From assembly GCF_011745625.1 (NCBI RefSeq), contig NW_027191486.1, positions 186,001-237,149 of the forward strand: a stretch of 51,149 bases of DNA, given 5' to 3'. This document shows, piece after piece, positions 5,156 through 37,726 of this stretch (within the stretch, counting starts at the first letter, position 1; the number at the start of each line of letters is the position of its first letter). The position numbers were made by a program, and so were the translations under genes. This DNA is from Cladosporium halotolerans (taxonomy: Eukaryota). The notes beneath the pieces are model-generated. The model was not told where the DNA came from, ran no database searches, and saw nothing but the letters and a program-made list of their open reading frames with translations.

Positions 5156-5831
5156 GGGGGAAAATGAGGAAGACCATCGATCGATGAAGTGCTAATGCCG
5201 CGTGGATTTAATTTTTCTTTGCTGCAAATCTGAAGTGTTGGTCGAATGACGGAGCGGGCGAGTCGAGAATTCCTCCTCGCCGATTTTGCTTTCTCAGACT
5301 GGGCGAATGCATTCTTTTCCTTACAGGGTCCGAGGACGCGACGGGAAGATCGAAAAGAAGGGAGACCGCTCCTCGACAAAAGCATACGGAAATCTGGGAT
5401 CCGGACCGGGTGGACTTTTGATCAACTGCCGCTCTTCTAGTAGACTTACTCGTTCTTATACATATGCTTTAGTATAATTAAATGTGTAGAGTTTTAGACA
5501 TCATTCCTTGCTCTTCCTGGTGCGGTGAGCGTGGATGAGCACGTGACCTGCAAGTTGTTTCGAAGACGGCGTACTCTAAGCCGACGTCCTGTCAGATTAA
5601 CGGCCATGAAAACATGACGATGCACACGGCGACATCAAGCGGGTCAGGAAACCATCAGGTCGTCGCATTCTTACCATTTCTATAATTCCTTATCGAATTG
5701 ACCCTGCAAAAGCAGCAATCACAAGAAATACTACAGTCACCACCTCCCTCAACCACCCCCCAAAACACCCGCCCCAATCGAACCCCCAACTCACTCCAAA
5801 AGAGAAACACCCCCAACCCCCCCGTCCCATC

Positions 5832-7663
5832 TCAACCCACCACCCCCGCCCCACACAACCTCCCCACCCACCCCCCCGCAACCCACCCCCTAACCCTCTT
5901 CCCCCAAACCCAAAACCCCACCACGGCCACATTATTCCCCGCCAGCACCGCCGTAAACACGCCCGCGACCACAACCGCATACCCGCTCCGCTCCACCCAC
6001 TCGAGCAAATACAGCCCGAAGGCAAAGCTCACGACGCTCTTGCCGACGCACTGCGCGACGAGCAGCTCGCTCGCGCGCGCGCTCGGCAAGCCGTCGACCG
6101 CGTACGCCAGCGCGAACGCGAAGTAGAAGTAGCTGCTCCAGTCGACGAGCGCGACGCCCGCGAAGTAGCACGCCCAGTGCAGGCGGTGCTGCGCCGCGAG
6201 GCCGTAGAGGATCAGCCCCGCGGGCGCGAGGAGCGCGGCCGGCAGCAGCACGGGGAGCCGCATTTCGGCTTCGCGGATGGAGTTGTTGCGCCGGGTTAGG
6301 TGAGCGGCGAGCCGGTCGGAGCTGCTGGCGAGCGGGATCGCGAGCGCGTAGCCGATGATGTTGCCCAGGGCGATGAGGCCGGAGTTTTGCTGGGGGAGGG
6401 GGGTTAGTGTGGGTTGTGGGTGGTGGGTGTGTGTAGGAGGATTTGAGCGTACCTGGGCCCAGTTGTAGGGGGGCTGGATGATGAGGATGGGGAAGGTGTA
6501 GTTGAAGACGAGCGCGCCGAGGCCGATGTAGATGCCGTAGCTGGAGATGACCCAGAGGACGGAGGGGACGAGGAAGTACGCGAAGGAGCGCGCGGCGGTC
6601 ATGAAGAACTGCTCTTCGTGGTCGATGCCGCTCCAGGGCTTGAGGGTTTGCAGGAATGTGCGGCGCGCCGGGACGGAGGGTTGCACTTCGACGTGGGCGG
6701 AGGAGGGGGCCGCGGGTTCTTTCTCGACTTCGTGCTCGCCGGAGGCGTCGGAGGCGCGGGAGGAGGGTTGGGGGGATGTTGGGGAGGGTTTGCGGCGGTA
6801 GGAGGTTTCTTCGACGAAGAAGAAGGCGAGGATTAGCAGGGCGCCGGCGAAGGCCACTTCGACGTAGAAGAAGAGACGCCAGCTGTAGCCACCCGCAAGC
6901 ATGTAGCCGGCGTAGAGAGGGCCGGTGGAGCCCCAGCAGAGGGCGACAGTGTAGATTCCGAGTTTTGTACCACGTTCGTGCACTGGGGTGTTTCAGCGTT
7001 GTGTGGCGTGTGAGTTTGGTAGACGATCAACTTACGGAAAAAAATGTCGTTGACGAGCTGAACAGGTAGAGCTTCACAAATACCGCTTGACAGGGCTTGA
7101 ATAATACGACAAGCCATCAGCGAGTTGAACGTATGACTCTGACTGCAACCGATCAGAGCAGCGAAGTAGATTACAAGCGTCCCCAGCATGACAGGTCGAC
7201 GGCCGAACTTCATGTACATAGGTACTGTCACCAGAGTTCCAATGCCGTAGACCAAGGTCGGATATGAGATGAGCTGAGAAGCCGCAACTGGCGAGACATT
7301 GAGCTCGGCCGCGAATAGAGTGATGTAGACTGAGGGTCCCAGCAAAGCCGTATTGCTGAAGAAAGAGTAGAGCGCGCATATCACGAGGATCGAAGTCTTT
7401 TTCCACTTAGGCCATTGGAGGCTGCCTTTGTCAGATTGATTGCATCGTCTTCCGTGGACGGCAATCCACTCACGGATCATTTGGGTCTTCCGCCGGGACT
7501 GGGAAGAGTGCCTGTCCATAAGCAGTGTCGTCGCCTTCGGCGGCTGCGAGATTGACAGTGCCAGGGATATCTCCCTCTTTGGCATGACTGCAGATTGTCA
7601 ATTACCTAACAATGCAGCAGACCGAACATGAACAGCTCACCTGTGCACCAAATGCGGCGCCAT
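5832..7663 (-). CDS. MFS transporter (DHA1/HOL1-like family)
   Basis: ATG 7663. Spliced N-terminus MAPHLVHSHAKEGDIPGTVNL...PVPAEDPNDPLQWPKWKK; motifs KFGRRPV, DIFFLHERG and EAEMRLP; many TM segments. Introns at about 7640-7588, 7472-7424, 7035-6983 and 6452-6390. Confidence 0.88.
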
Positions 7664-9012
7664 TGTAGATCTCAGCCCCAAGAAGGATTTATCACAAGGA
7701 GGAACAAAAAGAGCAGCAAACAAAATCAGCAGACAGCAGCAAGAGAAGCTAAGTACCTACTGTCCAGCGCACCCGGGAGGAGGTCCTCCATTTCTAAAAG
7801 AGAGCTGCCCTCACTCAATCACGGCGCCCCGAATCGCGCCCAACGTACTTGCCGGCATCGTAGAAAAAACGCCGCGAGGTCGCACGCCCGCTTGAGACAA
7901 GCCAGGGGCGGGCGTTCGCTTGCCTGCTTGCAGAGCCATGTGCGGCGCACGGCATGTTTGCAGCGTAACCTGCCTCTCGCCTGCATGCACCCTTCCACCG
8001 GCCTCCCGCTATCTGCGGGGAAAGAGAGAGTCTGCCACGACGATCGTCCGTCGGCAGAGAGTCCGCGAGGTGGGTTAGAGCGGAGAAGACAGCAGGGCGT
8101 CGTGAGGAGGAGTCGCAGTAGCAAGTGCCGGTGAACGCTAGCTCGAGGGGAAAGATGGAGACCCCGTGGGTGGGCAGAGGTCCGGCATGGGTTTGAGTGG
8201 CTGCTTGCCGGGGCCAACCCGGACGCCGACGAGGGAGGGCCGTCGTAGGCATTGCACCCTGCCACGCTTGCGGCATCCATCCACACGCGCGCGCGGCGTG
8301 CATGCAGCTGGCTCAGGCATGTCCGCGCGAGGGAGGATGGAAGGACGGAGAGGCTTTAGGCTGAAAATTGAAAGCCCGTCATCGCGGAGGCGCTGGGTTG
8401 GAGTGACGATCGGGCCGCTTTGAGGGCGAGCGCTGCCGGAGGATATTTTCCAGATGCCAGCTGAGATTAGGTTGCCCGATGGCTGTCCAATCGATGGGAT
8501 GGGCGGGAATGGTCAATGCCACCGAGATAGCTGTGGCTGCAGAAGCGGAAGCACGCTTCGTCGTCAATGTGTATAGTCGCAACGCTTCCGGGCTGTTGGG
8601 TCAGAGGCGAGGGCAAGATCATACGCGACGGCTCCTGCACGTATCCTGCTATTTTGCCAGGCCTTGGATTCATCAACGACTAATGTACAAATCCTAACGT
8701 GGAGAATCTTTGCCGTCTCGCTACGGCTCACCGACTATAGCGCGCAAGGTCTGGCACACAACTCATGGCGATACGTTATTGTTCCGTCCGCGTCTGACCG
8801 AGGATAATTGAAGCCAAGGCGGTCAAACTCAACTGAGCAATCATAAAGAATTGGTTTGGCAGTTCCTCGTTATCAAAGCTGGCTTGTTGCTCCGCTTGGA
8901 GCCATGACGCATGTACATTTCATGACACAAGGTGGGAGCGCGCGTACGGCACTACTCTGGCTGACAGGCCTGCCCTAAGCTGTTCTGCATCGTTTTGCTG
9001 GCAACTCTCGGT

Positions 9013-9048
9013 TGGCTCGATCGCTTGTGATGGCTCGATCGCTTGTGA
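9013..9048. repeat. 18-bp perfect tandem duplication
   Basis: tggctcgatcgcttgtga x2. Confidence 0.85.
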
Positions 9049-9309
9049 CGATACAGACAAACGACGGGAGCTCAACGCGGCATGCACATACGCGCGTCCA
9101 TCGACTTTGCATTTTCTCACCGTGTCTGACGATGCATATAAGAAGGGACACAGCACCCTTGAAACAAGAGCCTGCAAAACGTTCGTGCGATCGTTCATCT
9201 TACATGAAAGACCATGCCATGCAGGCCTCTATGCTAGTCTATGCGCTGCCTCGCTGAATACGACCGTCCAATGCAATAGAATGGCTCACGAAGGTGATAG
9301 TCTTCCATT

Positions 9310-10298
9310 TTACCTCTGGCCAGCCAGTCTCCGCTCCTGCACTTCCGTCAAAGCCCTGCTTCCACTGACGTATGCCACAACACCGACCAGACCCGCAACA
9401 GGCAGCGTCTGGAAGAGCGTCCAGCTATAGTAGTACAGGAAGAAGACGCCCTCCATCGCGACGACGCTTCCAAAGAAAAGTCCGTGAGCGACTGGGTTGG
9501 CGCCGAAGGCCTTACCAGCGTGATCGAGGTTTCCTCCGAGGCCGGCCCACAGGCCGAGAAGGGCGGGGAGGGTGAAAATTACGGCGAGCATGAAGACGCC
9601 GGAGACGATCACGGGCGGCGACTGTGCGTCGGCCTTGAAGATGTGCTTGATCTCGGGCTTGGATGTGTAGCGCTCGGGGGCGGGAGGGAGTGCGAGGGGG
9701 GTCGCAGTGTCGCGGGTGACCTCGAGGTCAAAGACATGCTTGCGGAGGGGAGTGGTGGAGCCGAAGGAGGCGAGAATGATTGATGCGCGAGCAGATTGGG
9801 AGGAGGTCAGGAATTGGAAGGGAAGGTCCTTCTGGGTCTAGGATGAGAGTCGATATTAGTAAAGTGATCCTTGGCCGGACCACGAATTCCAGCCCAATGT
9901 GACGCACCACTTCAACCTTGCCCTTGCCATTGTCCTTCAGACTGAACGGGAACGACTCCTCAAGACCCGTAGACGGATCGTGAAGTGTGAGGAAGGCCTG
10001 GTGAGGCTTCTTTCCAGTCTTGCCCTCCGTGGCAGTGAGAACAATCTTGAGGGTATCGGTTGCCGAGAGGGAAACGGCGGGAGAGAGTGCAGAGGTCAAA
10101 GAGAGCCTGCATCATCGTCAAAATTGTTGCCCGCCATCTTCATTTGCTTCCGTATACTGACTTCTCTTTGGCACCACCACCAACGCCCGCACCCTTCTCT
10201 TGAACTGTGAGCGTGGCATCTTCGAAGCCCCAGCTAGCACCATACGCAGCCGACGCAGCCGCCAGGATGGGAAGGGCGATTCCGCTGAAGATCCTCAT
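9310..10298 (-). CDS. SWP1: Oligosaccharyltransferase subunit Swp1 / ribophorin II
   Basis: Signal peptide MRIFSGIALPILAAASAAYG. Motifs KKPHQAFL and RYTSKPEIKHIFKAD, then 3 TM helices ending GSRALTEVQERRLAGQR. Two introns (about 10160-10106 and 9908-9838). Confidence 0.88.
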
Positions 10299-11220
10299 TG
10301 TGAATTGACAAGCTGATCCGTTGTTGCGAACCAATTGTGACAGTTGTCGCAACGCAATGGTCAGGTCCGACTTTCGTGGAGCTTGGAGCTACGTCGTCTC
10401 ACCTTCGAAAGCGGGAGCTAGCCACTAGCGCCCGAGGGGAGAATGTGAACGGACATTCGAGCAGTCGGCATGTGATACACTACTTTGAAGCCAACGTGTG
10501 ACTGTCATGTCGATACATCATGCACGTATTGCTGACCGCGGTTGTTATTTGCCGGGGAATCACGCGCATTCCTGGCAGACCTAAACCTTTGTCACTTCGC
10601 GTCGGTCGCTCACTTTGATGGAAATTCATTCACACCTCTTGACCGGATTGGATATGTAGGACAGTCGGCGATGAGCGTCTATAAGGTTGTGCACGCATCA
10701 GCAATTCGAAATGTGCGTATTGATATAGCCGCATGTGCGCAGATGCCAGGTCGGCTTCGGTTTGCTGCCAACGAGGCAGAAATCCCAGAGCAAGACCCGA
10801 TGTCACGTGAGTGCCCGTTTAGGAAAGCGCGGGCTCCACCTTGTCTTTCTCACGCGATGCTGCCTTCCTTCTTAACTTGACCTCAAGACCTCAGCCACCT
10901 AAACGGCGCTGCCATCGCCGCAGATCGACTGGGGCATATTGCACGTCTCACCTACATTGCTGGATTCGTTTCACGACTATATCGAGGCATACGCCTTGTC
11001 GCGCGTTGTTGATTTCCCCCTCGCACGTGACGGAGTTTTGTGGGTCAGCCGACTTTACTTTTCGACACCTCCGCCGCTGGACTTCTGGCAAACAACAACG
11101 CTGGTTGCCTTCCCTTAGGACCGGCGTCCATCGATGTCGGATTCGCAAATACCTAATCAGGCAATTTCAGTATTTCACTTCACTTCCCAGATCCCATCTG
11201 CCAAAATACGCAAGTATCGA

Positions 11221-13422: not shown

Positions 13423-13485
13423 TCCGCTGCAACCTTTGTGAGGCACCTGGTCCTCGTTTGAGACGGTTTTCTGAGCTGGATCCTT

Positions 13486-13523
13486 TTCTTCTTCTTCTTC
13501 TTCTTCTTCTTCTTCTTCTTCTT
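13486..13523. repeat. (TTC)n microsatellite, about 12 units, in the 3' UTR region
   Basis: Uninterrupted ttc run. Confidence 0.95.
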
Positions 13524-13885
13524 TGGTACAGAAGTTACCCTAATTCTCTTGCATTGAATGGTGTTTTGAGCGAGCCAGCTCGAGCTAGCGATTGGCGTAA
13601 TACTTGATAATGGGTTTTTCTTTCGACTTTCCTGCGGTTTCTTTTTCCAAGTCTCGCCGAAGCACTTCGGACGGCACAATGGGATAAACAAAAGCCGAGC
13701 GGTGCTGGTGAATCAGTCTTCAATCAAGGCCAACTATCGGAGGCTGAGCAAGCATTCGACGGGCATGTGCTTTTACCGGTGTAATTATATCAGTGTACGA
13801 GTAGTGAATGCCGCATTCCGGATGAGGACGCTCATGTTCCTGAAAAAAATTCTTTTCCATGTCCTCAAAAAGTGTGAATCGTCGT

Positions 13886-17754: not shown

Positions 17755-17844
17755 TCTACACAGCTTTAAATTTCCATTTGTTTCTTCTATAGATAGCAGT
17801 TTCTTTTAATCGTTGCCAGGCTTTCGGCTACCAATGCACGGCCT

Positions 17845-21036: not shown

Positions 21037-21088
21037 CTTGGCTATTTGAAAACTTTCTGATAGCCTAGATCATCCGTCCCCTCGGTGT

Positions 21089-22967: not shown

Positions 22968-22971
22968 AACC

Positions 22972-25900
22972 ATGGCGCGTGGTATAGAGGGAAATGAGAT
23001 TGCCACGCCTCGAACGGCACCCAGGAAGACCGGCGGCCCCACGCAGAAGTCGGGTGGGAAACAGCAGAGCATCGCTGGATTCTTCAAGCGAACGCCTGGT
23101 CCAGCTCCACCGAGCGCTGCTCCTCAAGCGAAGGTCTCTACATTCAACCCTGTTCCCACAGAGACACAGTCTAGTGCCGATGCAACACCTGTTCCAAGTA
23201 GCTTGCCCGCACCGTCTTCCAGCCCTCAACCAGCCCTGGAATCATCGCAGACAGATCCGACAGACAACGGACGGAACAAAGAGAACGGTGAGTTGCAAAC
23301 GATTGAGAGGCTCAAGCTCTGACTGACCCGCTGAGAAGTGACTCCAGATACCCTCCAGTCCAGCCCAATCCGCAAAGCCAAGAAGAAGGTCAATTACGTT
23401 GAATCAGACGACGAAGACGACGATGTGTTCAAGCCACTGTCGGGGAATGGAAGGGCTGCAAAGAGGAGGCGTGTGAGCACAAAAGAGGACTCAGATGACG
23501 ATTTTGGCCTTGACGCAGCAACCCAGGCTGCGATGGAAGACGACGACGGTAAGTCATCACACCCAAATGCGGTTTACGGGGACAATTACGAGGCCTTAGG
23601 AGCGCTTCTCAACCTCCAAACCTTGTCTAGGCGACGGCCAGTTCCCACACCTCAGGCTGACTCTATAAAATCAGAAGACATGGATGATTTCATTGCACCC
23701 GAGGACGACGAGGATGAAGTGAAGCCGCAACGGTCCAAGAAATCATCAGCCTCGTCTTCTCGAAAAGCATCAATAAAGCCACCACCGTCGCCCCCACATG
23801 AGGATAGTGAAGAGATCCCTGCTACATCGACTGCCCAGCAGTGGAAATTTGATCCAGATGCGCCGGTTTCCAACGAGCCAAGGAAACCGGCTGCCGCACG
23901 CAGAAGCGAGTCTTCCGGCCTTCAAAAGAAGCAAAAAGCCCATGTTACAGAGCCGGAGAAGCGTTACCCATGGCTTGCCCACATTCTCGACGCTGACCGC
24001 AATCCAACCGATCATCCAGATTACGATCCGAGAACGATATTCATCCCGCCCATGGCTTGGAGCAAGTTCTCGCCTTTCGAAAAGCAATATTGGGAGATTA
24101 AGCAGAAATTCTGGGATACCATCGTCTTCTTCAAGAAGGGCAAGTTTTACGAGCTGTACGAGAAGGATGCCACAATTGGTCACCAACTCTTCGACTTGAA
24201 GCTCACTGATCGAGTCAACATGCGTATGGTCGGTGTGCCCGAGGCCAGCCTTGACCACTGGGCGAATCAATTCGTTGCAAAGGGCTACAAGATTGCTCGG
24301 GTGGATCAAATGGAAACCGCGCTTGGCAAGGACATGCGTGAGCGTGATCTCAAGGGCAAGAAAGAAGAGAAGGTCATCCGCAGAGAGCTTTCCACCGTCC
24401 TCACGTCCGGCACTCTCGTCGATGGCGGGATGCTGCAAGATGATATGGCGACTTACTGCGCTGCAATCAAAGAGACTGAGGAAGATGGAAAACCTTGCTT
24501 CGGTATTGCTTTCGTTGACACTGCCACTGCGCAGTTTCATCTCACTCAGTTTGTGGACGACGCGGACATGACACGATTTGAGACCTTTGTGGCGCAGACA
24601 AGACCCGGCGAGCTGCTCCTTGAGAAGAGTTGCATCTCGGCAAAAGCGCTTCGCATCCTCAAGAACAACACCCCTCCGACGACTATCTGGAACTATCTTA
24701 AGCCGGATAAGGAGTTCCTGTCAGCTGACAAGACCCGTATGACAATTGAGGCTGAAGGCTACTTCGACAAGGTTGAGGAGGACAGCATTGATTCCTGGCC
24801 TGCCGTTCTTCGAGAGGCCAAAGAGAAAGAGGAAGTATTCGCAGCTCTTGGTGCTCTCATCTGGTACCTCAAGACGCTCATGATCGAACGTGACCTGGTC
24901 ACTCTCGGCAATTTCAACTGGTACGACCCCATCCGCAAGGCATCTAGCCTGGTACTTGACGGCCAAAGCTTGATCAACCTCGAGATCTTCGCAAACACTT
25001 TCGACGGCAGTACTGATGGAACGCTTTTCACTATGCTCAATCGTTGTATCAGTCCGTTCGGAAAGCGTATGCTTCGCCAATGGGTGTGCCATCCGCTGGC
25101 TGATCCCAAAAAAATAAACCAGCGCTTTGATGCAATTGATGCCTTGAATGCTGACGGCACGATCATGGACCGCTTCACGGCGTCTTTGGCACGCTTGCCC
25201 GACCTCGAGCGTCTGATCTCACGCATTCACGCTGGCAGGTGCAGACCTCAAGATTTCGTTAAAGTACTCGAAGGCTTTGAGCAGATCGAGTACACCATGA
25301 CCATGCTGAGTTCTTTTGGCTCCGGCGAGGGCGTGCTTGGCCAGCTCATATCTGCGATGCCAGACCTCGCGGGTGCCCTCCACCACTGGAAGGATGCATT
25401 CGACAGAACGAAGGCAAGAGAAGATGGCTTGTTCATCCCGCAACCAGGCGTGGAACAGGACTTTGACGAGAGCCAGGAACGCATTGACGGCATCTTGAAA
25501 TCACTGGATAAGCTGCTGAACCAATATCGGAAGGAGCTGGGCTCGTCAGCTATCAAGTATACGGACAACGGCAAAGAGATCTACCAGCTGGAAGTACCGA
25601 TCAAAGTGAAGGGCACGATCCCGAAGGACTGGAAACAGATGTCTGCCACCAAGCAGTGCAAGCGATGGTACTCACCAGCGCTTGAAGATCTGGTCCAAGA
25701 TCTCAAAGAGGCTCAAGAAATGCACGCCCAGACCGTCAAGGAACTTGCAGGACGCTTTTTTGCTCGTTTCGACATCGACTACCCCGTCTGGCTAGCTGCC
25801 GTCAAGATCATTGCGCAGCTGGACTGCCTGATTTCCCTGGCCAAAGCATCTACTGCCCTCGGTGTACCATCGTGCAGACCCGAATTCGTCGACGAAGACA

Positions 25901-26733
25901 ATGCACGCAGCGTGCTGGAGTTCGCAGAGCTCCGCCACCCCTGCATCGAAACCTCCACAACCTTCATCCCCAATGACATCGTCCTCGGCGGCGACAACCC
26001 CTCCATGGACCTCCTCACCGGCGCCAACGCAGCCGGCAAAAGTACCGTGCTCCGCATGACCTGCGTCGCCGTCATCCTCGCCCAGATCGGCTGCTACGTG
26101 CCGTGCGCCGCCGCGCGCATGACGCCCGTCGACCGCATCATGTCGCGCCTCGGCGCGCACGACAACATCTTCGCCGGCCAGAGCACCTTCATGGTCGAGC
26201 TGTCGGAGACCAAGAAGATCCTCGCCGAGGCCACGCCGCGCTCGCTCGTCATCCTCGACGAGCTCGGCCGTGGCACAAGCAGCTACGACGGCGTCGCCGT
26301 CGCCCAGGCCGTCCTGCACCACGTCGCCACCCACATCGGCGCGCTGGGCTACTTCGCCACGCATTACCACAGCCTCGCGGCGGAGTTTCGCCACCACCCT
26401 GAGATCGCGGCCAAGCGCATGGCGGTGCAGGTCGACGGCGACGCACGCGGGGTGACGTTTCTGTACAGGCTTGAGGACGGCGTGGCGGAGGGCAGCTACG
26501 GCATGCACTGTGCGGCTATGTGTGGGATCCCGGAGAAGGTCGTCGAGAGGGCGGAGGAGGCGGCGAGGAGCTGGGAGCACACGGGCAGGATCAAGGAGAG
26601 CTTGGAGCGGGCGAAGGAGAGCACGTGGTTACCCCTGGGCATGTTGAGCGATGTTAGCTGGTTGTTGAAGGGGGAGGGAGAGGTTACGGAGGGTAGTTTG
26701 GAGGTGCTGAGGAAGGGAATTGCTGCTTTGTGA
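22972..26733 (+). CDS. MSH6: DNA mismatch repair protein Msh6
   Basis: N-terminal PIP box QQSIAGFF, mismatch-binding FFKKGKFYELY, Walker A TGANAAGKST, STFMVE, DELGRGTS and FATHY. Introns 23288-23338 and 23549-23674. Confidence 0.97.
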
Positions 26734-27131
26734 GAGGGATGGTTCAATGGTGTAGGCGACGGCTGGTCACGTTGCTCTGTATGAGATAGTATGGCTTCGT
26801 TCGCGAATGGCTGGCGTTCAGGCGACGGGTTTAGTCTTGGTCGCTCAATGTATACAGTTGATAGCTTGAAATGGACCAACTGGCACTGTTCTTTTCAACC
26901 CCCCCGATCTAGAAGTTATGCAGTCTCTTTTGCCAGTTTCGAGGTCCTCAGCTTGACCAAAACTATGTTTGCCCATGTGCAAAGTCCGAACGGGTTCACA
27001 GACCCTGGCGAAGGATTCGTACAGCGGGCCTTGCAAAAAGGCGCACACTCGCCATCTCACCTGGCGTACGGAAGTCGATTTCTGCAGGCTTTCGCCGGAA
27101 TGCATGCCCGCACTGGCAAAAGCAAAACAAC

Positions 27132-27214
27132 AGCTTCCTCCCGTGATCGAAACAGGGACCTTAGGATATCTTGCATCGCTGCAACCCCACGCTCTACCAC
27201 TGAGCTAAAGAAGC
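27132..27214 (-). tRNA. tRNA-Cys(GCA) with an 11-nt intron
   Basis: Reverse strand reads GCTTCTT TA GCTC AGTGGTA GAGC G TGGGG TT GCA G [cgatgcaagat] A TCCTA AGGTC CCTGT TTCGATC ACGGG AGGAAGC T. U73 discriminator, intron 27168-27178 at the canonical 37/38 site, and a TTTT terminator just downstream. Confidence 0.9.
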
Positions 27215-28213
27215 TGGTATTATTTAAGCATTACCGATGACCAAAATTTCATATACAGCATTAATTCGAGACCTCATCAGCGTTGGGCTCTGGAGCGGGC
27301 TTTGGGCCACCTAGTTTACGCTGCATCAAGAATGGACGAGTCTCTGTAAAGACTCCGGAGAAGTTACCGCACATCCGGATCGAAACGGCAGGGCTTTTCT
27401 TTTGAGAATATTCTGAGACCTACTCCGAGGATTTTCATATACCAGCGCACATACAATGTCATCCATGTGATTCAGCGTTCACGAGGATACAGCGGTCTGA
27501 GGTGCCATGAGCTCGAAGTCTTGTGTATTCAGTACATGCGGGGTGATCAGCTCTATCCTGCTGCAACTCGTCTCACAACAATGTAACGAGGATATGATAT
27601 AGTACTTGCATTGGAGTGAATGGTACGATAAGCATGAGGTATACGGTTCAAAGGCCATCAGCACTTTCAAGCGTGAGACATTCGCGTGGAGCAGCGCGTC
27701 GTAGCGTGCCTTGCTCCCCGCGGCTGCTCCGCCTGCCAATCAAGCCCGCGCCGCCAGCTTCGGCACGGCAGGCAAGCAGAGAGCACCCAAGGGAGCTCTC
27801 AGCTCACCACCACCACCACTTGCCTGCGGTAGCGGTACTCTACCCGGGACGTATGACTGCCTGCAGCCTGCGCACTTTGCCTTTGCTCCCTGTACCCGCA
27901 CCACGCTCGCACCACGCTCGCTTAAGGGAGCCTCCGCCTCACTCGGCCAGCTCGTCGGCAATCGCCCATATCGCGCTACTCCGCGTCTCGTCGTTTGATG
28001 CACGCACTTGCACCCGCATCGAGACATAGCCCAACCTTCGTTGCACCCGCCTGCTTACGCCAGCTCCCTTCACACCTCACAACCCTCAACTCTGACCCAC
28101 GACAACCTCGACTGCTGCTACAAACACACGACAACACCCTCCCACCTCCACCTCCTCAGTTTGGTCCTCCCATACAATAGATCTTTGGCCTGGTGCCGCC
28201 CTCCACCGCCAAC

Positions 28214-30656
28214 ATGAAGGCTGCACCCCTCCTCGTCGCCTGGCACGACGAAAATGCCCCGATCTACTCAGCACACTTCGAACCCGGCGGTAAAGGCCGA
28301 TTAGCAACAGCAGGCGGCGATCACCATGTCAGAGTAGGTTCATTTCTGGTCAGCTCCAGGGACTGCAGCTTACTGACGATTCCAAGATCTGGAAGATCGA
28401 GGCGAATGGAGAAGAGCGGAAGGTAACATACTTGGCGACTCTACAAAAACACACGCAAGCGGTCAATGTCGTTCGCTGGTGTCCTCGAGGTCAGTTCCTG
28501 TGGCATTCTTCTGCTGCTGCCTACCTTACACATGCTGACAACAACATCAGGTGAAATGCTTGCTACAGCGGGAGACGACGGCAACGTTCTGCTTTGGGTA
28601 CCTTCCGAGAATCCTGCACACAATTCAAACTTCGGAGAAGACGGGCTGGAAGACGTGGAAACATGGCGGGTCAAGACAATGTGCAGGTCAAGCAGTGGAT
28701 CAGAGATCTACGATTTAGCTTGGTCTCCTGACGGCGCGTTCTTCATCACTGGCAGCATGGACAACGTTGCAAGGATATACAATGCTACAAATGGTGAGTG
28801 GACGCTATGGAAATCTTACAGAGAGCACTGGCTTACAGCATGCAGGAACTACTGTTCGACAAATCGCCGAGCACAACCACTACGTGCAGGGCGTTGCCTG
28901 GGATCCGCTGAACGAATATGTTGCAACACAGTCGTCCGACCGATCTGTACACATCTACACATTAAAGACGAAGGACGGCCAGTTCACTCTCACTCAGCAT
29001 AACAAGGTCACCAAAATGGACCTCCCAGCTCGTCGCATCTCTTCAAATAGCCCGGCACCTCCAGACTTCGGTTCGGGCAATCACCGAGCAGCTTTCGTCC
29101 AAGATGGTGGCTACGCGGTAGTGGGATCTCTGGCACCTTCAGCTCCTGGTACACCACAGTCTCTCGCCCTCCCGATGAATCCGCCTCCCACCTCCCACAG
29201 TCGAAGATCTTCATTCGGGTCACAAATGGGTACTGGTATGACCGTGCGCCGCTCGGTATCGCCGAGTCCGTCAATGCCGCTCCCTGCAGTGATGCCCTCT
29301 GCGTCTCCAAGCGTCTCGGGTAGCTTCGGCGTCGATGTCCGCAATGCAAATCTGTACGCCAACGAGACCTTCACATCGTTCTTCCGCAGACTATCATTCG
29401 CCCCGGATGGAAGTTTACTTTTCACGCCGGCTGGACAGTACAAGACTTCTACTTTGCCTGGACCTGAGCCGAGTAAGAAGGACGACGACATCCTCAACAC
29501 CGTCTACGTCTACACCCGCGCGGGGCTAAACAAGCCTCCCGTTGCTCACCTTCCTGGACACAAAAAGCCTTCGATAGCTGTCAAGTGCTCGCCAGTGTAT
29601 TACAACCTCCGAGTGAATGCCCCAGAAACAAAGGAGATCACCATCGACACCAAAGCTGAGGATGATATACCGCCTCTGCCCGAACCAGCTCATCCCACAA
29701 AAGCACCGACATCTCACGCTTCCATGGACCCACCACCTCTAGCACCTTCGCCATCTCCAAGTGTTGCAACTATGGCATCGCCGAGAGTTGCCGACACGGA
29801 GCCTAGTCCAACAACGACCGGGCCTCCTGCGGGGCCAGTGCCTGCTTTTGGTCTGCCCTACAGGGTTGTCTATGCTGTCGCCACGCAGGATGCTGTGCAT
29901 GTCTACGATACGCAGCAGACCAAGCCTCTCTGCGTGGTCAGCAACTTGCACTACGCCACATTCACCGATTTGACCTGGTCGAGCGATGGCCAGACTCTCC
30001 TGATGACCTCGTCTGATGGCTTCTGCTCAGCTCTGACCTTCGCACCCGGAGAACTAGGATCCGTCTACCACCCGCCTCCAGGCGCCGCGCGACAAACTCC
30101 AACGCCCATCTCCGTAGCGCGAGCCAACTCCGCCTCCTCAACTCCCCAAGCAACACCCACAACAATCCCCGCCGTCCCAGCCCTCCCCCGCCAACCCTCA
30201 AACCCACCAACCAACAACTCCAACACCATCGCCCCACCACCCGCCCCCTCGCCCTCACCCCTAACGCAACCCGCCCGCCCCGCCTCCCCAGCCCGCAGCA
30301 TGTCCGCTTCCAGCGCCGCCAGCTTCGCCCACCCGCCCGACCAGAACGCTCCGCCCGCCATGAACAACCCCACGCCCTCGATGAGCAGCGTGCCCTCCAT
30401 CGCCGCCGCCGGTTCTGGAGGCGCTACGGGGCCCCTGCCGCTTTTCACGCCGCCGCAGACGCCGGGCGCGTCGGCGGCTAGTAATGGGGCTGCGAGCGCT
30501 GTTGCGGCGGGTGTGAAGCGGGAGGGAGAAGGTGCGGAGGAGGGTGGGAGGGAGAAGAGGAGACGGATTGCGCCGACGCTTGTTAGTGCTGAGGAGGAGA
30601 AGCCGCAGGCGCAAAGTGGACAGGAGGGTGGGGGAGGTGGAGGTGGAGGTGCGTGA
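28214..30656 (+). CDS. CAC2: Chromatin assembly factor 1 subunit B (p60), WD40
   Basis: MKAAPLLVAWHDENAPIYS...RLATAGGD, HTQAVNVVRW, HNHYVQGVAWDP, SFFRRLSFAPDGSLL, and the C-terminal Asf1-binding B-domain KRRRIAPTLV; 3 introns near the 5' end. Confidence 0.95.
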
Positions 30657-31143
30657 GGTCGATGGTACGTGGTGTAGGTGGATTTCTCTGGGTTGGTTTC
30701 TGCTTCTGTCGAGGGAACAATCTCCTGATGGTCTTTTTCTCTTTTTTTCTGGTTTTTAGCCCGGCGTTGGTTGGATGGTATGCGTCTTTGGCATTTTACC
30801 GCTGCAGTGTTCGCTGCATGCATCATGCCGTAGATATCGGCGTTGATGGCGGACATTTCGGCCTGGTTCGGAAGAGGCACGGGATCTCTTTCTTCTCCGT
30901 TTTGCTGCGAGGCAGCGAAGATACCATTACGGGATTTATGGTAGATTTCAAGATGAATTTCATTACATCGTGGAAGGCGGCGGACGGTAACTCATTCTCC
31001 ACTTCTTTCTCATTGTGTTGAGTCGGTCACCAGCGCATTTCCGAGTTCTGGTACGATAGGATGTGATTGTACAAATACAGCCGAGCGTCTCACGCCCGGT
31101 CTTTTGACATTTCTTACAATATATTTACATGCGAAAACCCAAC

Positions 31144-32667
31144 CTACTCATCCCCCTCCTCCTCCTCCCACTCCTCAAACTCCCCCTCCTCCTCTCCCTC
31201 CCCAACAACGCTCCTCCAAACCCTCTCCCAAAGCCCCTTCTTATGCACCATCCCCAGCACAAGCACGACGGGCAAATGCCACACGCTCGCCCAGAACAGC
31301 GCCCGCGCGCTGCCCCGCTCGCCGTTGAACCGCCAGAACCGCACCGCCTCGCGCAGCATCCAGGCGTTGATCGCGCTGCTGGTCGCCAGGAAGGCCGAGT
31401 CCGTCACGCCCGCGTAGCTCAGCGCGCCGCAGATCGGGAACATCGCCAGGCTGTAGCGCAGCGACACCCGCGCCGCCATCGGGATGTTCGTGCTCGTGAG
31501 CATCCTGTAGCCGGCGCCCGCGTACTCGTGGCGCACCGCGTGCGACAGCGCGAAGAAGTGCGGGAACTGCCATGCGAAGAGGATCGCGGCTAGCAGCCAG
31601 CCGCCCGTCGCCTGCGGCGTGAAGAGCAGCTCGCGCGCTTCGGCGGCGACGCTCGCGGGGGACGTCGGCGAAGTGGTCGTCGTGCTGTACTGGCTCGCGG
31701 CGGCGCACCAGCCCATGAGGGGCGGGACGGCGCCGACGACGGCGCCCACCCACGTGTTGGCGGGGTGCAGGCGCTTGAGCGGCGTGTAGGCGAAGGCGTA
31801 GAGGGCGAGGTTGCCGGCGCCGAGGAGGGCGGTGGTCGGGTTCACGCCGTACCAGAGCGTGCCGGTGCCGAGGAGGCCGGTGGCGAGCGCGAAGAGGAGG
31901 GCGGCGCGTTTGGTGAGGAGGCCGCGGACGAGCGGGCGGTTGCGCGTGCGCGACATGCGGGCGTCGTGCGCGGGCTCGAAGAGCATGTTGAGGGTGTTGG
32001 CTGAGGCGATGGTGAGGAAGGTGCCGGTTGTGAGGAAGCCGAGGGTTAGGGTGCTGAGGGAGGGGGCGGCGGTTGCGGAGGTGCTGAGAAGGGCTGGCAC
32101 GGGGTAGATTGAGTATGAGGCGGTTGTGGTGAGGACGACGAGGAAGGCGAGGCGGGGCTTGGAGAGAGCGAGGAAGGTGTTGATTGTGCGTTTGAGGGAG
32201 CGCGAGGGCGCTTCGGAGGCGGCTCGCGAGAGGGTGGAGGAGGCATCTGGGGGGAGCGGTTGTTCGGCGGCCGGGAGTGTGGTTGCCTCTGCGGCGTCCT
32301 TTAAGCGCTTTCGTCGTCGGTGAGGCGGTTCTGCCGGCGCTATTACTGCCGGTTGCGATTCTGAAGGTGGATGTGTTGCGGCGAAGGCCGCTGTGGATTG
32401 TGCTCGTCTTCTATCCGGCGCATATGATCTGACCCAGAAGCTCCCTCCCACTTTGCCCAGCTCTTGTCTAGTCTTTACAGCATTTGACCAGAAATATGTT
32501 TGTTCCAGTGGTTGGTTCTGTGAGGCCGCAGCCTGCTTTGCTTTTGAAGTTATCGAGAAATGTCGTAGGCCGCGATTCGGCCTCTGTAATAATCTGCCGG
32601 CGCAGGATGCGCATACATCATCCAGTCGAATTGCGTGCGCCCTGGCGGCGTAGGGCGGGCGAAACAT
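31144..32667 (-). CDS. COX10: Protoheme IX farnesyltransferase (heme O synthase), mitochondrial
   Basis: LSKPRL, D-x-x-MSRTRNRPLVRG, YTPLKR, NTWVGAVVGAVPPLMGW and WQFPHF; Arg-rich presequence starting at ATG 32667. Confidence 0.95.
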   Translation of the reverse strand: MFRPPYAARAHAIRLDDVCASCAGRLLQRPNRGLRHFSITSKAKQAAASQNQPLEQTYFWSNAVKTRQELGKVGGSFWVRSYAPDRRRAQSTAAFAATHPPSESQPAVIAPAEPPHRRRKRLKDAAEATTLPAAEQPLPPDASSTLSRAASEAPSRSLKRTINTFLALSKPRLAFLVVLTTTASYSIYPVPALLSTSATAAPSLSTLTLGFLTTGTFLTIASANTLNMLFEPAHDARMSRTRNRPLVRGLLTKRAALLFALATGLLGTGTLWYGVNPTTALLGAGNLALYAFAYTPLKRLHPANTWVGAVVGAVPPLMGWCAAASQYSTTTTSPTSPASVAAEARELLFTPQATGGWLLAAILFAWQFPHFFALSHAVRHEYAGAGYRMLTSTNIPMAARVSLRYSLAMFPICGALSYAGVTDSAFLATSSAINAWMLREAVRFWRFNGERGSARALFWASVWHLPVVLVLGMVHKKGLWERVWRSVVGEGEEEGEFEEWEEEEGDE

Positions 32668-34153
32668 CAAGAGCTGCCTGGGGTGGTCCAATTGCCTTGC
32701 GCGCGTGGTAGACGAGACGAGGTCGAAGTCAGATCGAGGGTACAGGGCCAAGCGGGCGATGGATCGTCCGAAGCTTACCCGTGGGTGTCATTGGCTGCGA
32801 AGGATGCAGTTTATCTATTGCGATTGGATGCCCTGTGAAATAGATGTGCAGGCACTTGCACGTGTGTAGCCAAATCCAGATCCATCGATCAATTCATTAG
32901 ATGATGTCTACCTACACTTATTATTATAGAGGCCGGCAAGATGTCTGTCGGGCGAGCGTCTTCCAGCAGTAGAAAGGGAAGACCGCTTGAACGTACCTTA
33001 TTTGTACGACTACCTACACTCGCCGGCCATACCGAGACTCTAATGCTCAAATACTTGATTAGTACTCATCGTCCGGACACAGACACAGGCTCTAGATAGT
33101 AGTCCCATCAATGACAAACATGGCGAACGCGCACGCAGCGTAGGCCGACACGGCTACGGCTCTTGGCTGGGTCCCTTACGCTGGCTGGCGGGTCTGGGCG
33201 GGCGATAAAGCGGACGATGGCTTGCGTGCGTGCGTTTCGCATACTCGATGTGCCGCACAGCAGGCGCCCTGTCAGTCAGTACGTCCGAGGCAGACAAACA
33301 ACCAAGTCGGCGGTACTCTCCAAGCCGGTGTGATGCGCAAAGCATGTCCCAGCTGGCGGCACGCACAGCCTCTTTGTTCCAGGCGCGCACGGCGGGGCGA
33401 GGCGCGGGTGGTGGTGGCACGGTGGGTGGGTGGATGGCTGATGTTCTGGGCTGATGCAGCGCGCGCGCTAGCTCGCCGTGCTTTCCCCACACCCGTCATT
33501 CGACCAGGCCCAAAAGGCACGCCGCTGCTTCCTCCATCGTCACCACCCGGCCCAAACCCCAAACACCACCCGGCACCACACGCCCTCCACCACCCCTCCA
33601 GCTCCGCCCTCACTACAAGCGTACGTCGGCCTGTAACCACCGCGCATACGCTGCTCTCCGCCGCCCGCCTGCCGCCTGCGCCGGCAAACACCCGCGCCAA
33701 GCATCCGCGTGCTGACGAGCAAAGTGCGACAGGCCGCTGACTCCCACCTCGCTCCACCGCACCACCCAAACTCCGCCATCCCCATCCATATCTCCGCTCC
33801 GCCCTACCGAGGCTCAGTCTATCGCTATCCTCAGGCCATCCCTTCGCACTCCACCTTCATCACCACCTACATCCAACGCTCGCACTCGGCCTCCACGGAC
33901 GCCTCGACCCTCCATCCCCACCACGATCCACGCCGGCCGGCGCGAGCATAGCATCTTCCATGCGAGAGCAGTGACGACAGTCACCACTCAATCTCGACTC
34001 TTTACTCACCTTGCGCGAAACTTTCGCCTGGGTTGCACTCCGCAAAACCCTCTCGTACGATAAACTCGCAACCATAAGCGCATACAAGCTGTCCGCGCTT
34101 GCCTTACAGCAAGAACACCCAGTCACGTGTGCCGATCTCGCGACCTTGCGATA

Positions 34154-35842
34154 ATGGGCAACCAGCCATCCAAGGACGGCAAGAGTACATCAGGCTCACA
34201 GACACCGACCGGGCCTGGCCCCACGTTGGACTCGTACCCTTCATTCAGCAAAACCGACACCAAAGAATCCATGCGCTCCTTCAGGAATTCCTTACGCACC
34301 AAAATCCCCGGCGGCAAGTCTGCGGACAGCCCTCGAGGTTCGACTTCAGCGCTGAGCGGGGAGACCTCAGCGGACGACCGCGCAGATGCGCAAAGCGTGA
34401 AATCGGCGACCAGCGGACGGTCGAAGAGGAACTCTGCCCTGTCTCTTGACCCAGATTCTCGCAAAGAGAGCGTCGATGATGGCGACGAGCCGCAGCCTCC
34501 GCCGTCGCCCACAACGTCCGCATCAGTCCAGAAACCCCACAGCGACATCGCCGAAGCACAACGGAGTGGAGAGGTAGACGCAGTGTCTGACGCGCCTCCT
34601 GGCGGTAGTGGCATGCATCATACCCACGGCAGAGAGGCTGGCCCGTCAATCCTCAAGAAAGACGAGAAACCTAGCTCCAGCTCCAATGGACCCGGACAAG
34701 GTGCCGCCGCCGCCCTGTCTCTTGTTGACCAGCTCGGAGATGCTTCTGGAAACTCTGCGAACAACCCTGAAATCGGTGCGCTCAAGCAAGCTGACCTCGA
34801 CGACATGATCAAGCGACTGATCGACGCTGGCTACGCTGGCAAGGTCACCAAGACTGTCTGTCTCAAGAATGCCGAGATTACAGCCATTTGTAATGCTGCT
34901 CGCGAGATCTTTCTTTCACAGCCCGCTCTGCTCGAACTTTCTCCGCCCGTCAAAATCGTCGGAGATGTGCATGGCCAGTACACCGATCTGATTCGTATGT
35001 TTGAAATGTGCGGCTTCCCTCCCAACAGCAACTTTCTGTTCCTCGGTGACTACGTCGATCGCGGCAAGCAAAGTCTCGAGACTATTCTGTTGCTCCTTTG
35101 TTACAAGATACGCTACCCCGAGAACTTCTTCCTGCTCCGCGGCAACCACGAATGCGCCAACGTAACGCGTGTCTACGGTTTCTACGACGAGTGCAAGAGA
35201 CGGTGCAATGTCAAGATTTGGAAGACATTTGTGGACACGTTTAACACACTTCCCATTGCAGCGATTGTGGCCGGCAAAATTTTCTGCGTTCACGGCGGTC
35301 TCAGCCCGTCTTTGAGCCACATGGACGACATTCGCAATATCGCTCGCCCGACAGATGTTCCCGATTACGGCCTCCTCAACGATCTTCTGTGGTCTGATCC
35401 GGCAGATATGGATGCCGACTGGGAAGCCAACGAACGGGGTGTCAGCTATTGTTTCGGCAAGAAGGTGATCATGGAGTTCTTGCAGAAGCATGATTTCGAT
35501 CTCGTCTGCCGAGCCCACATGGTTGTCGAAGACGGCTACGAGTTTTTCAACGAGCGAATCTTGGTCACTGTCTTCAGCGCACCCAACTATTGCGGCGAAT
35601 TCGACAATTGGGGCGCAGTGATGAGTGTGAGCGCCGAGCTTCTCTGTTCTTTCGAGCTCCTGAAGCCTCTGGATAGCAGCGCGCTCAAGAGCCACATTAA
35701 GAAGGGCAGGAACAAGCGACAGAGCATGTTGAACAGTCCGGTGAGTCTTATAGCGTTCTCTAAGAATTATTCGTCTCTGCCTTGGACAACCGTACTAACG
35801 AGTTGCCAACAGCCGGCCAGCCAGTTCCCTCAGAGTTATTAG
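34154..35842 (+). CDS. PPZ1: Ser/Thr protein phosphatase Z (PPP family)
   Basis: Myristoylation start MGNQPSK and Ser-rich N-terminal extension. PPP motifs GDVHGQ, GDYVDRG, RGNHE and [11 protein letters not shown]. In-frame intron 35741-35812. Confidence 0.93.
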
Positions 35843-36710
35843 AAGTCTCCCAAATGGTTCTGATCGACGACGAGCTCGCCGTAAGTTAGCCAGCGGGGTC
35901 GGACTCTCTGAGTACCAGCAGAAGGATCTCCGGCACCAAGAATCATCATCGACGATTGTACCCTCACTGGCACACGGTTGCCTGTTTGCGTGAGTTTCCG
36001 ATCGCACGTTCGGTACCAGCGCTTCGCGGCGCGATCAGGAGCTCTCGCGCGTGGTGGATGGTAGGACATGCCTAGTCAAAGAAGGCCCTGGCACAAAGCT
36101 CTGGAAGTGTTATCACCTTCGCGTCGGTATATCACAACATGGCAACGACACTGTAGTCGAGCAGGCACGCGCCTTTGCCATGCTCGCACCTGGGGACATC
36201 GAACTCTGGCCTCAGATTGATTTCACTAAGCCGTGGGCGAGCTTGACGACAAGCGAATGCGTACTTTGTTCGCAGCAACGACGACGATATGGACGAAGCG
36301 ACGAAGTTGTCTTTTTTGCGATCTTCTTTCTTGCTTCTATTACTCAAGACTGATCGTGTTTCTTTAATACTCTCCTCCGGGACAAACATGCATCGAGACG
36401 AGGCGCGACCGGAAGAGAAGATGGAGACCCTCGAGGGGTCTTTTAGATGTACTTGTGTTCTCACTAGAGATTGAACTTCCTTCAGCATCTCGAGGTATCG
36501 GGTTCGGGGGGTTTTATCGGCGTTGGCGGTTGAAGTGAGACGATTCGTCTCGAGGAGTGACAGAGGCTCCCTCACAGGAAGCCCATCGGCCACAAGACCT
36601 CTCTTCACTTGCGCTCGGCTCCCAAAGAAGATAGACAAGACTCCCACGCGAGTCTCAATTCAAAGCGGCTTACACCAAAGACCATCTCTCCCCCACCCTC
36701 CCCAACCCCC

Positions 36711-37518
36711 CTAAACCTTCGCCCTAACCGGCAAATCCGTCCTCCGCCCATAAACATAACTAATCTCCCTGAACGCCCTCCCCGCCTCCCCAACCAACTC
36801 CCCCCTCAGCAACGCATACACCCCCATCCTCGCTTTCGGCGCCCACTCCCCCGCAACCCTCATCGCCACCGCCTCCATCTCCCCCGCGGCAGCCGCAAAA
36901 TCCACCACGCCGTCCTCCACCGCCTCGCCCGCCGTCCACCGGTGCGCCTCGAGCAGCATCTTCCGCGCCGTCTTCGGCGGCAGTTTCAGCCGCAGCAGCG
37001 CGCCGATGCCCGGGAAGTGCAGCCCGAGGTCCACGGGCGGCATGCTGAGGTAGCCGCGTTGCGCGTTCATGACGCGGTAGTCGTGCGCGAGCGCGAGTGG
37101 GCAGGCCCCGCCGAAGGTGTGGCCCGTCAGCAGCGCGATGGTCGGGAAGGGGAAGTCGAGCAGCGCCGCGAGCAGGGGGAAGAAGCCGGCGGTGTTGGCG
37201 TGTGGGTTTGTGGCGGGCTCGGAGAGGTCGAGGCCCTTGGAGGTTGTTTGGTCAGATTGGGAGGGGAGGGGAGGAAAGGGGTTCTTTGGATGAGGGACGT
37301 ACGGTGCACCAGAATTTGGCGTCGTTGCCTTTGGTTATGACGGCGCCGGGGCTGTCGGGGCCGAGGGTCGTGCGGACGAGGTTGAGGGCGCGGATGAGCT
37401 TTTGGGCGTACGCGGAGTCGATGCGGTTTTCGGGCGCTTTGCGCATGGTTATTACGAAGATGTTATTGGCGTGCCGGTCGAGGGCGAGGTCGGGCTCGTC
37501 GATGTAGGAGGTGGGCAT
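36711..37518 (-). CDS. Enoyl-CoA hydratase/isomerase (crotonase) family, probable peroxisomal delta3,delta2-enoyl-CoA isomerase, 246 aa
   Basis: Exons 37518-37303 and 37235-36711. KFWCTGLDL, PTIALLTGHTFGGAC-LALAHDYRVMN; C-terminal AKV (PTS1-like). Confidence 0.85.
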
Positions 37519-37726
37519 TTTTTGCTTTTGTTGTCGGGTGGGTTGGGTTGGATGATGGGGTGGAGATGGTTTGGATTGGGTTTGTTTAAACGGGTGATTT
37601 GGTTGTTTTTTGCAAGACCTTGCTTTCTCTTTCTTTCTCAAATTGGCCTCGACTGCAATCAATCTAGCTGGTGTAACAATAATAACAGGCGTCGTTCAGA
37701 CATGAAGTGCTCAGGTGTCTTGGTTG

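Follow-up and report, generated by a model that had tools for sequence, protein, structure and literature searches.

In most fungi, filamentous ascomycetes included, the coding strand of many, but not all, genes is C-biased towards its 5′ end and G-biased towards its 3′ end (McLean & Tirosh 2011; PMC3315797). This bias is seen at four-fold degenerate sites, in promoters and in 3′ untranslated regions (UTRs), and it affects the terminal amino acids of the encoded proteins; its cause was left open between mutational regimes along the transcription unit and selection tied to the supply of cytidine triphosphate. No later work resolving the cause was found among the papers searched that name both 'opposite GC skews' and 'unicellular fungi'. 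Here, we describe six islands of extreme strand skew (A to F, ~0.7–1.2 kb each, together 11% of the sequence) in a 51,149-nt stretch of the Cladosporium halotolerans genome (GCF_011745625.1, contig NW_027191486.1, positions 186,001–237,149, forward strand), hereafter the window. On the plus strand, each island passes from a C-rich arm through a GC-rich middle to a G-rich arm. We put the probability at about one half that the islands are a discrete and extreme form of the published gene polarity, linked to the transcription unit. Gene models combine reading frames, Pfam matches and a few joints in RNA contigs (run X2, same organism), and skew runs were called after 150-nt smoothing at an absolute skew above 0.35. 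The islands are located as follows.

Island A, 1080–1780 (C arm 1097–1231, G arm 1629–1778): metallo-beta-lactamase-fold gene, minus strand, first coding exon together with the 5′-UTR side
Island B, 5690–6840 (C arm 5685–5998, G arm 6325–6838): last ~1 kb of an MFS gene, minus strand, stop 5832, and ~145 nt past the stop
Island C, 25850–26790: last ~880 nt of MSH6, plus strand (MutS domain V and C-terminus; Pfam MutS I–V), stop 26731–26733, and ~57 nt past the stop
Island D, 30060–30790 (C run 30078–30351, G run 30510–30720): last ~600 nt of CAF1B/CAC2, plus strand, stop 30654–30656, and ~130 nt past the stop
Island E, 31100–32280 (C run 31099–31294, G run 31923–32263): 3′ ~1.15 kb of COX10 (UbiA family), minus strand, stop 31144–31146
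Island F, 36630–37620 (C run 36630–36933, G run 37168–37615): whole enoyl-CoA hydratase (crotonase) gene, minus strand (Pfam ECH_1), with its UTR sides; stop 36711–36713, start near 37518

Segments of 60 nt (step 30) in which G and C counts differ by at least 25 occur 41 times, whereas 200 shuffles inside 1-kb blocks gave 0.89 on average and never more than 5. A preliminary description of the window had given ten hand counts of 60 nt, every one of which is exact (e.g., C41/G3 at 5821–5880, G35/C1 at 6391–6450 and C37/G0 at 31141–31200). It had also named six places where a C run is followed by a G run; five pass the smoothing threshold as pairs, and at 25930–26730, in island C, only the G run 26569–26791 does so, the C arm being clear at four-fold sites. 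The half-patches that it reported at both window ends are present (G at 1–244, C at 50839–50917), its weaker patches inside 44000–45520 resolve at four-fold sites into two weak C-then-G units in tandem, the pattern is indeed missing from SAC1, MET7 and PPZ1 as well as from the initial two thirds of MSH6, and the protein tails that it quoted agree with the translation. Its term 'CpG-rich core' holds for GC content, which is 0.67–0.73 in the middle thirds, and fails for CpG itself: the observed/expected ratio of 1.07–1.29 is barely above the 1.01 of the rest of the window, so that the term mostly restates GC content. The GC maximum, also when taken at four-fold sites (GC4), coincides with the zero crossing of the skew, and the skew returns to ~0 within 200 nt of the island edges, reaching at most ~600 nt to either side of the centre. 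Twelve of the window's 17 G-quadruplex-type motifs fall in the six islands, always on the G-rich strand. An inverted-repeat element or hairpin was rejected as an explanation: the best local alignment of each C arm with the reverse complement of its G arm, set against 100 shuffles, gave z = 0.11, 4.89, −0.12, −0.04, 2.74 and 1.07 for A to F, and the two higher values (B and E) come from arms full of short C/G runs.

The four-fold skew on the plus strand rises monotonically across each of the six islands, from between −0.64 and −0.92 to between +0.50 and +0.87 (A, −0.64, +0.29, +0.74; B, −0.72 to +0.81; C, −0.75 to +0.50; D, −0.73, −0.61, +0.87; E, −0.67 to +0.77; F, −0.92, −0.43, +0.26, +0.78). 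In island C, for example, the four-fold counts of A, C, G and T go from 2, 27, 1 and 0 at 25927–26076 to 0, 5, 10 and 1 at 26527–26676. GC4 within the islands is 0.8–1.0 (0.92–1.00 in A, 0.88–1.00 in B, up to 0.98 in E); the flanking coding sequence has a skew of ~0 and a GC4 of 0.44–0.68, as in the upstream bodies of MSH6 (skew 0.00) and CAC2 (−0.06/−0.07) and the 5′ part of COX10 (32301–32667; −0.06, GC4 0.50). The local skew is also carried by non-coding sequence, namely the crotonase intron (37235–37301, confirmed by the RNA joint 37234→37302; A13 C5 G32 T17) and the 5′-UTR side of the same gene (A12 C6 G39 T45), a putative in-frame intron of 63 nt in the MFS gene (6393–6455, minus strand; A7 C3 G35 T18), and the stretches past the stop codons of MFS (5690–5831; A49 C64 G12 T17) and CAC2 (A13 C22 G42 T57). 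The MFS segment 6393–6455 starts with GT, ends with AG and is stop-free, and would be a small intron or else a low-complexity insert that is retained.

Four-fold sites show the skew at its strongest, and introns and UTRs carry it too; it is hence a bias in substitution, not an amino-acid effect. The preliminary description had proposed a strand-asymmetric mutation or repair process, and these sites do bear out strand-asymmetric substitution; it had named a loss of skew at synonymous and intronic sites as refuting its reading, and the opposite is observed. The proteins are reshaped as well: the C-termini of MFS, CAC2 and COX10 are rich in Gly, Glu, Trp and Val, and the disordered CAC2 tail, downstream of introns confirmed by RNA contig joints, turns from Pro/Thr/Ser-rich to Gly/Glu-rich. 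That protein composition or low complexity alone produced the islands is scarcely credible. The second codon position of COX10 is skewed (+0.7 on the plus strand, in the N-terminal part), and distant COX10 orthologues (47–55% identity) share a weak C run and a weak G run at the same places, but the skew at four-fold sites, in introns and in UTRs refutes such an effect as the sole cause.

The direction of change can be read in COX10 (island E), for which relatives were drawn from metagenome contigs carrying this gene (80 fungal loci, 59 non-redundant, 0.69 Mb). G+C at third codon positions (GC3) is 0.80–1.00 in the window over codon columns 140–440, versus 0.40–0.90 in five relatives of 80–82% protein identity. 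Private changes were defined on the sense strand as window bases differing from a base common to at least 6 of 8 other sequences. The upstream half of the unit holds 32 private changes to C (T>C 6, A>C 15, G>C 11) versus 5 from C (C>T 0, C>A 1, C>G 4), and the downstream half 22 to G (C>G 10, A>G 9, T>G 3) versus 6 from G (G>C 4, G>A 2, G>T 0); the first 120 codons, outside the island, hold 4 to C and 5 from C, and 5 to G and 11 from G. In the units, silent sites of the sense strand thus change from any base to C upstream and from any base to G in the other half, G↔C transversions included. The relatives lose the favoured base (to C/from C and to G/from G: 4/9 and 1/14 in L001, 4/9 and 2/13 in L010, 0/8 and 1/6 in L002, 1/11 and 2/3 in L004), where ancestral states follow majority rule, L005 is left out for its implausibly many changes, and the figures are substitution counts and not rates, the branches of the relatives being shorter than that of the window. 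The process is episodic, building in COX10 of the window lineage and decaying in the relatives. It extends to the protein, since 13 of the 22 window-private amino-acid changes in the COX10 unit raise the GC of codon positions 1–2 and one lowers it. The crotonase island is common to L001, L010 and L006; exon 2 (36711–37233, in island F) has only 50–65% protein identity to its orthologues (L001:5500–5823, L010:5551–5910), compared with 82–85% for exon 1 and 88–91% for neighbouring genes in the same relatives. These three contigs (80% identity) are syntenic with the window interval 21000–43000 on one side of COX10 only (PPZ1, crotonase, P450); CAC2 and MSH6 do not lie beside COX10 there, which places a rearrangement breakpoint at the COX10 3′ end.

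GC3 saturation, clustered episodic substitutions and amino-acid changes towards GC-rich codons are shared with gBGC (GC-biased gene conversion) and runaway GC content, as described in the available parts of reports on the dog (PMC3861134) and the gerbil (PMC7403616, PMC6573468). Moreover, the bias from A or T to G or C (W>S) at silent sites, clustered in ~1 kb, that characterises gBGC hotspots is found in the islands. Canonical gBGC, however, is blind to G↔C exchanges, whereas the islands favour G>C over C>G upstream (11 versus 4) and C>G over G>C downstream (10 versus 4), an asymmetry that it cannot explain. A strand-asymmetric variant would be needed, in which the islands are intragenic meiotic recombination hotspots with breaks in the core; we consider this possible but unlikely. 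The heteroduplex on each side would always carry the 3′-ended strand of the broken chromatid, and mismatches with a pyrimidine, C above all, on that strand (C:C, C:T, C:A) would be corrected less efficiently than the reciprocal purine ones (G:G, A:G, G:T), a ranking of efficiencies known from yeast and E. coli mismatch repair. C would then be over-transmitted on the strand running to the centre, giving a C-rich, a GC-saturated and a G-rich part with the right sign. The GC4 maximum at the zero crossing fits this model, as do the lineage-specific COX10 burst of W>S and S↔S fixations (S, G or C) while relatives lose C and G, and the preponderance of amino-acid changes raising codon 1–2 GC. In the island C core, two silent positions separated by 12 nt (26364 and 26376, among the 40 of 358 differences listed) also show all four haplotypes in the window and three other strains, which means either gene conversion or recurrent mutation. 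Divergence of X8, the one full-length strain, is 1.2–1.4% over 24000–32031 and 2.8% over 32175–38600, with no clear excess in the islands.

Smagulova et al. are said to have described, in 2011, a nucleotide skew that switches polarity at mouse hotspot centres. For fungal recombination hotspots, no account of strand skew was found among the top-ranked literature matches, and 'skew' is used in other senses in the available parts of PMC3861134 and PMC5638367. In the part of PMC5844332 that was available, recombination within coding sequence is high in one filamentous ascomycete, which favours the hotspot model, but gBGC in that same ascomycete is extremely weak or absent; self-reinforcing GC/CpG hotspots, another point in favour of the model, are described for dogs in the available part of PMC3861134. 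The mutation pattern at human meiotic break sites, to judge from the available part of PMC11922761, resembles the islands in being point-centred, strand-asymmetric, on a 1-kb scale and tied to single-stranded intermediates. However, its signal is C>N on the exposed strand, which would deplete C on the 3′ overhang, the strand on which the islands are C-rich, and so has the opposite sign. Single-strand deamination at breaks in nucleosome-free flanks was rejected: it has the right C/A and G/T flavour, but it predicts a loss of GC and the observed changes are gains of C and G.

The position of the islands in relation to genes is informative. The preliminary description held that they ignore gene orientation, as they occur in both plus and minus genes. 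This impression is an uninformative artefact: a C-then-G sequence is its own reverse complement, so that its occurrence on both strands says nothing about independence from transcription. Islands B, C, D, E and F all end 45–147 nt beyond the stop codon, with the G-rich arm of the coding strand at the 3′ end. The units abut a gene end, usually the 3′ one, GC4 is ~1 where the two halves meet, and introns, UTRs and amino acids are dragged along. Further skewed units and runs in the window are the following.

9200–9830 (G run 9673–9830): ribophorin II-like gene, minus strand, stop 9310, with a weak unit at its 3′ end
28003–28218, plus strand: CAC2 transcript, 5′ end, with an unpaired C-rich run (an RNA contig begins at 28022)
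33512–33945, plus strand: unpaired C-rich run upstream of the PPZ1-like phosphatase gene (promoter/5′ UTR with a 5′-UTR intron; first ATG near 34154)
43960–44857 and 44860–45520: two weak tandem C-then-G units in a second MFS gene, plus strand (Pfam MFS_1)
1–244: G-rich half-patch, skew +0.61, truncated by the window start
50800–51149: C-rich half-patch over a minus-strand open reading frame (ORF; 50878–51117) with coding-like periodicity and no Pfam match, truncated by the window end

The ribophorin II unit, which was absent from the earlier list, likewise has its G-rich arm at the 3′ end and runs out past the stop codon (plus-strand four-fold skew +0.87, +0.70 and −0.20 from 9837 down to 9312; Pfam Ribophorin_II_C complete). 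In the second MFS gene, the four-fold skew runs −0.04, −0.22, +0.55, +0.62 and +0.47, and then −0.52, −0.29, −0.33 and +0.40. The unpaired runs at the 5′ ends of CAC2 and PPZ1 are C-rich on the sense strand, and the one upstream of PPZ1, where RNA joints 33620→33725/33733 mark the 5′-UTR intron, is the 5′ half of the same polarity rule. A language-model look-up of the PPZ1-like phosphatase points, weakly, to Ascomycota. Several islands lie in convergent gene pairs (D/E, F/PPZ1 and B/GNAT). Convergence was tried as a cause and is not sufficient, because the convergent P450 (ORF end 20930) and MET7 (21089) pair has no islands and the PPZ1 3′ end has none. Islands D and E converge across a ~340-nt spacer of ordinary composition, their centres ~1.2 kb apart. 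RNA contigs of the same organism span this CAC2/COX10 spacer (30818–31304, summed depth 18; the contigs are strandless), and the CAC2 and COX10 transcripts may approach or enter each other. Conversion by cDNA starting from the poly(A) end was rejected, because islands B and F hold introns, the one in B being putative.

The shape of the skew bears on two of the alternatives. In fits of the choice between G and C, a ramp beats a central step in islands A, B and E (ΔlnL 5.2, 3.6 and 17.8), the step wins in D (ΔlnL 8.0), and neither is better in C or F. Outward fading of a skew that is largest next to the centre is the best model in none of the six, the signal being flat or rising to the edge, where it stops. 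Outward fading would be expected of conversion tracts, and both its absence and the anchoring of the edges at stop codons or transcript ends are left unexplained by recombination hotspots. The preliminary description had proposed point-centred causes such as fixed replication origins or recombination and gene-conversion hotspots. For origins, with leading/lagging-strand mutational asymmetry, the sign is right, a G/T excess on the strand leaving the centre being found at bacterial origins and, in the available parts of PMC2817419 and PMC11874978, at human CpG-island or origin skews, where GC and AT skew likewise change sign at a GC/CpG-rich point in the same direction. Those skews, however, are described as extending over tens of kilobases to megabases from an abrupt jump, whereas the islands reach no more than 600 nt per side, frequently have the form of a ramp and stop at gene ends without persisting along a replicon. 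With at least eight units in 51 kb, two centres only ~1.2 kb apart, no abrupt step in three of the six islands and a COX10 island that is absent or weak in relatives of 80% identity, origins are a poor fit and, in our judgement, very improbable.

C-then-G units are common in the other fungal loci bearing COX10. Outside COX10 and the window, where gene models are stop-to-stop frames, eight units lie in frames of at least 350 amino acids (seven frames plus the 1112-aa frame of L014), and in all eight the 3′ edge is within 224 nt of the frame's stop; six start 500 nt or more downstream of the frame's beginning and two extend across it, with Pfam backing the strand in 6/8. In the unrelated fungus L014 (15768–17241), twin units stand at the 3′ ends of convergent EF-hand/ZZ and WD40 genes ~270 nt apart, the same layout as islands D and E. 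Pairs of runs within 1 kb are C-then-G in 79 cases and G-then-C in 33 across 81 sequences, a ratio inflated by the presence of COX10 in every locus and by near-duplicate loci. The average over 147 long ORFs (COX10 and the window excluded) has a four-fold skew of −0.26 at 450–900 nt before the end and of +0.09 in the last 150 nt, and shows no reversal when aligned at the ORF start (−0.10 to −0.24 throughout); the reversal near the end is only a hint, as stop-to-stop ORFs can end in introns. The baseline in these fungi is a C preference of ~−0.2 to −0.3 at four-fold sites.

Population data come from seven near-identical loci of the L014 group, another species (~97% pairwise identity, 728 biallelic single-nucleotide polymorphisms, SNPs). 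In the six arms of three units, 62 SNPs were polarised by minor allele; this allele takes away the base that the arm favours in 32 cases and introduces it in 6 (binomial p = 2e-5, for a small sample and a crude polarisation); elsewhere in the locus, S>W numbers 329 and W>S 222. This implies that either a fixation bias maintains the arms or the units are decaying, since a purely mutational equilibrium would give balance and not 32 versus 6. The excess is what fixation bias at hotspots would predict. SNP density and four-gamete failures are raised near the twin units, where both are greatest on the non-coding spacer; two places free of units exceed even this, an outcome that does not clearly favour such hotspots.

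The 32-to-6 pattern would suit any fixation bias, including selection acting on RNA or transcription, whether through G-rich 3′ pause or termination elements, through C-rich starts that slow elongation (slow early elongation being the adaptive idea of PMC3315797) or through a preference for C-ending codons. The G-quadruplex-type motifs in G-rich arms at 3′ ends and UTRs and the baseline C preference at four-fold sites agree with it. On the other side, the G arm uses G-ending codons within conserved domains (MutS V, UbiA), 22 amino acids of COX10 are altered in one lineage, and most genes, the closely convergent P450 and MET7 included, have no such pattern, which also turns over among close relatives. 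We regard selection as improbable, more so than recombination hotspots.

Compared with the published polarity (PMC3315797), the islands have the same direction, the same presence at four-fold sites, the same extension into UTRs, the same shift of amino acids and the same restriction to a subset of genes. They differ in being discrete ~1-kb units with GC4 near 1 and skews to ±0.9, whereas the published pattern consists of averaged ramps anchored at ATG and stop; such ramps over a large share of genes were not found in the window. GC skew and GC content are inversely correlated in the published data, whereas the skewed units here are the GC-richest parts. The start of the C arm in mid-gene, the G↔C transversions and the turnover among close relatives also go beyond that account. 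Linkage to transcription is favoured by the anchoring at gene ends, both in the window and in other fungi, by the published polarity with its promoters and UTRs, and by the lack of outward fading; conversion is favoured by GC saturation, burst and decay, restriction to some genes and the rare-allele pattern. The preliminary description had named, as refuting its reading, a full explanation of the skew by distance from transcription start or poly(A) sites, and this applies in part: the published polarity and the position at gene ends agree with it, and the limitation of islands to some genes does not.

Several observations weigh against a transcription-linked origin. The saturation of GC4 and the burst in a housekeeping gene such as COX10 resemble biased gene conversion more, and the rare alleles of the L014 group are not those of a purely mutational equilibrium. 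Known transcription-coupled asymmetries are small. Only a subset of genes carries islands: four-fold G excess is absent from the last 300 nt of SAC1, the P450s, MET7 and the multicopper oxidase, and from the final 300 nt of the last long exon of PPZ1, where the test stops at an intron edge and not at the gene's stop; eight non-island genes are without G excess near the end of the analysed frame. In MSH6, CAC2 and COX10, the C arm sets in abruptly part-way through the gene, from ~0 in the gene body to ~−0.7, which a picture of 5′ and 3′ ramps does not predict. Finally, island A and the first unit of the second MFS gene lie in the 5′ part of their genes, with the C arm at the gene's 5′ end. The Pfam Lactamase_B match of the gene at island A covers profile positions 7–83 of 196 only (first exon 1109–1714, minus strand), so the gene must run on leftwards and island A, which is not at its 3′ end, covers its 5′ part.

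For a transcription-linked origin, we offer a mechanism as an unproven proposal. G would accumulate on whichever strand is unpaired during transcription. Near the 3′ end, the sense strand could be exposed through pausing or RNA–DNA hybrids, and in the upstream arm antisense or internal transcripts belonging to that ~1-kb unit could expose the template strand. Copying would place C opposite lesions on the unpaired strand, further hybrids would be stabilised by G-rich tracts so that the bias fed itself, and a fixation bias may contribute. This model would account for the change of everything to C or to G, for the GC maximum where both processes act and for the edges. Ginno et al. reportedly found, in 2013, GC skew and RNA–DNA hybrids at human gene 3′ ends, with a G-rich non-template strand and in gene-dense regions. 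This skew resembles the G-rich 3′ arm of the islands, but the 5′ ends differ, being G-skewed in mammals and C-skewed in fungi.

The neighbouring genes that complete the window are listed here with the remaining features.

760–1122, minus strand: further ORF near island A
4757–5155, plus strand: GNAT gene (Pfam/reading frame)
Plus strand: SAC1
ORF end 20930, plus strand: P450
ORF end 21089, minus strand: MET7, folylpolyglutamate synthase-like
27132–27214, minus strand: tRNA gene
Plus strand: second P450 and multicopper oxidase

The tRNA gene scores 45.3 bits in Rfam (gathering score 29), and ARAGORN in default mode reports none; short high-depth contigs of other runs stack on it, as expected of a multi-copy gene. 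The interval 1800–4200 comprises 2.4 kb of 63–73% GC with no codon periodicity in any frame and with long frames lacking a Pfam match, G-biased on the plus strand to ~2800 and then C-biased to 4240. Possibly the lactamase-fold (minus) and GNAT (plus) genes share here a divergent promoter/5′ UTR that is GC-rich and very long, or the interval holds an unrecognised gene.

What is new here are the discrete GC3-saturated units and the lineage-specific burst in COX10 with decay in its relatives. Should the islands instead be the footprints of long-lived intragenic meiotic hotspots, with a 'C drive' on the invading 3′ strand, which we regard as a doubtful though not negligible prospect, this drive would be a new flavour of biased conversion acting on G↔C as well as W/S polymorphisms; it could rewrite conserved proteins in bursts and might underlie fungal intragenic GC skew generally. 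Our results suggest that the published average pattern could be composed of separate ~1-kb units saturated in GC. Sequence alone suffices to call such units, and they arise and decay within a genus-level time span, altering conserved proteins such as COX10 and crotonase. Because lineages with and without a given unit exist, transcription-linked and recombination-linked causes are separable by experiment. For annotation and selection scans the units are a warning, in that fast protein change, as in crotonase exon 2, need not be adaptive.

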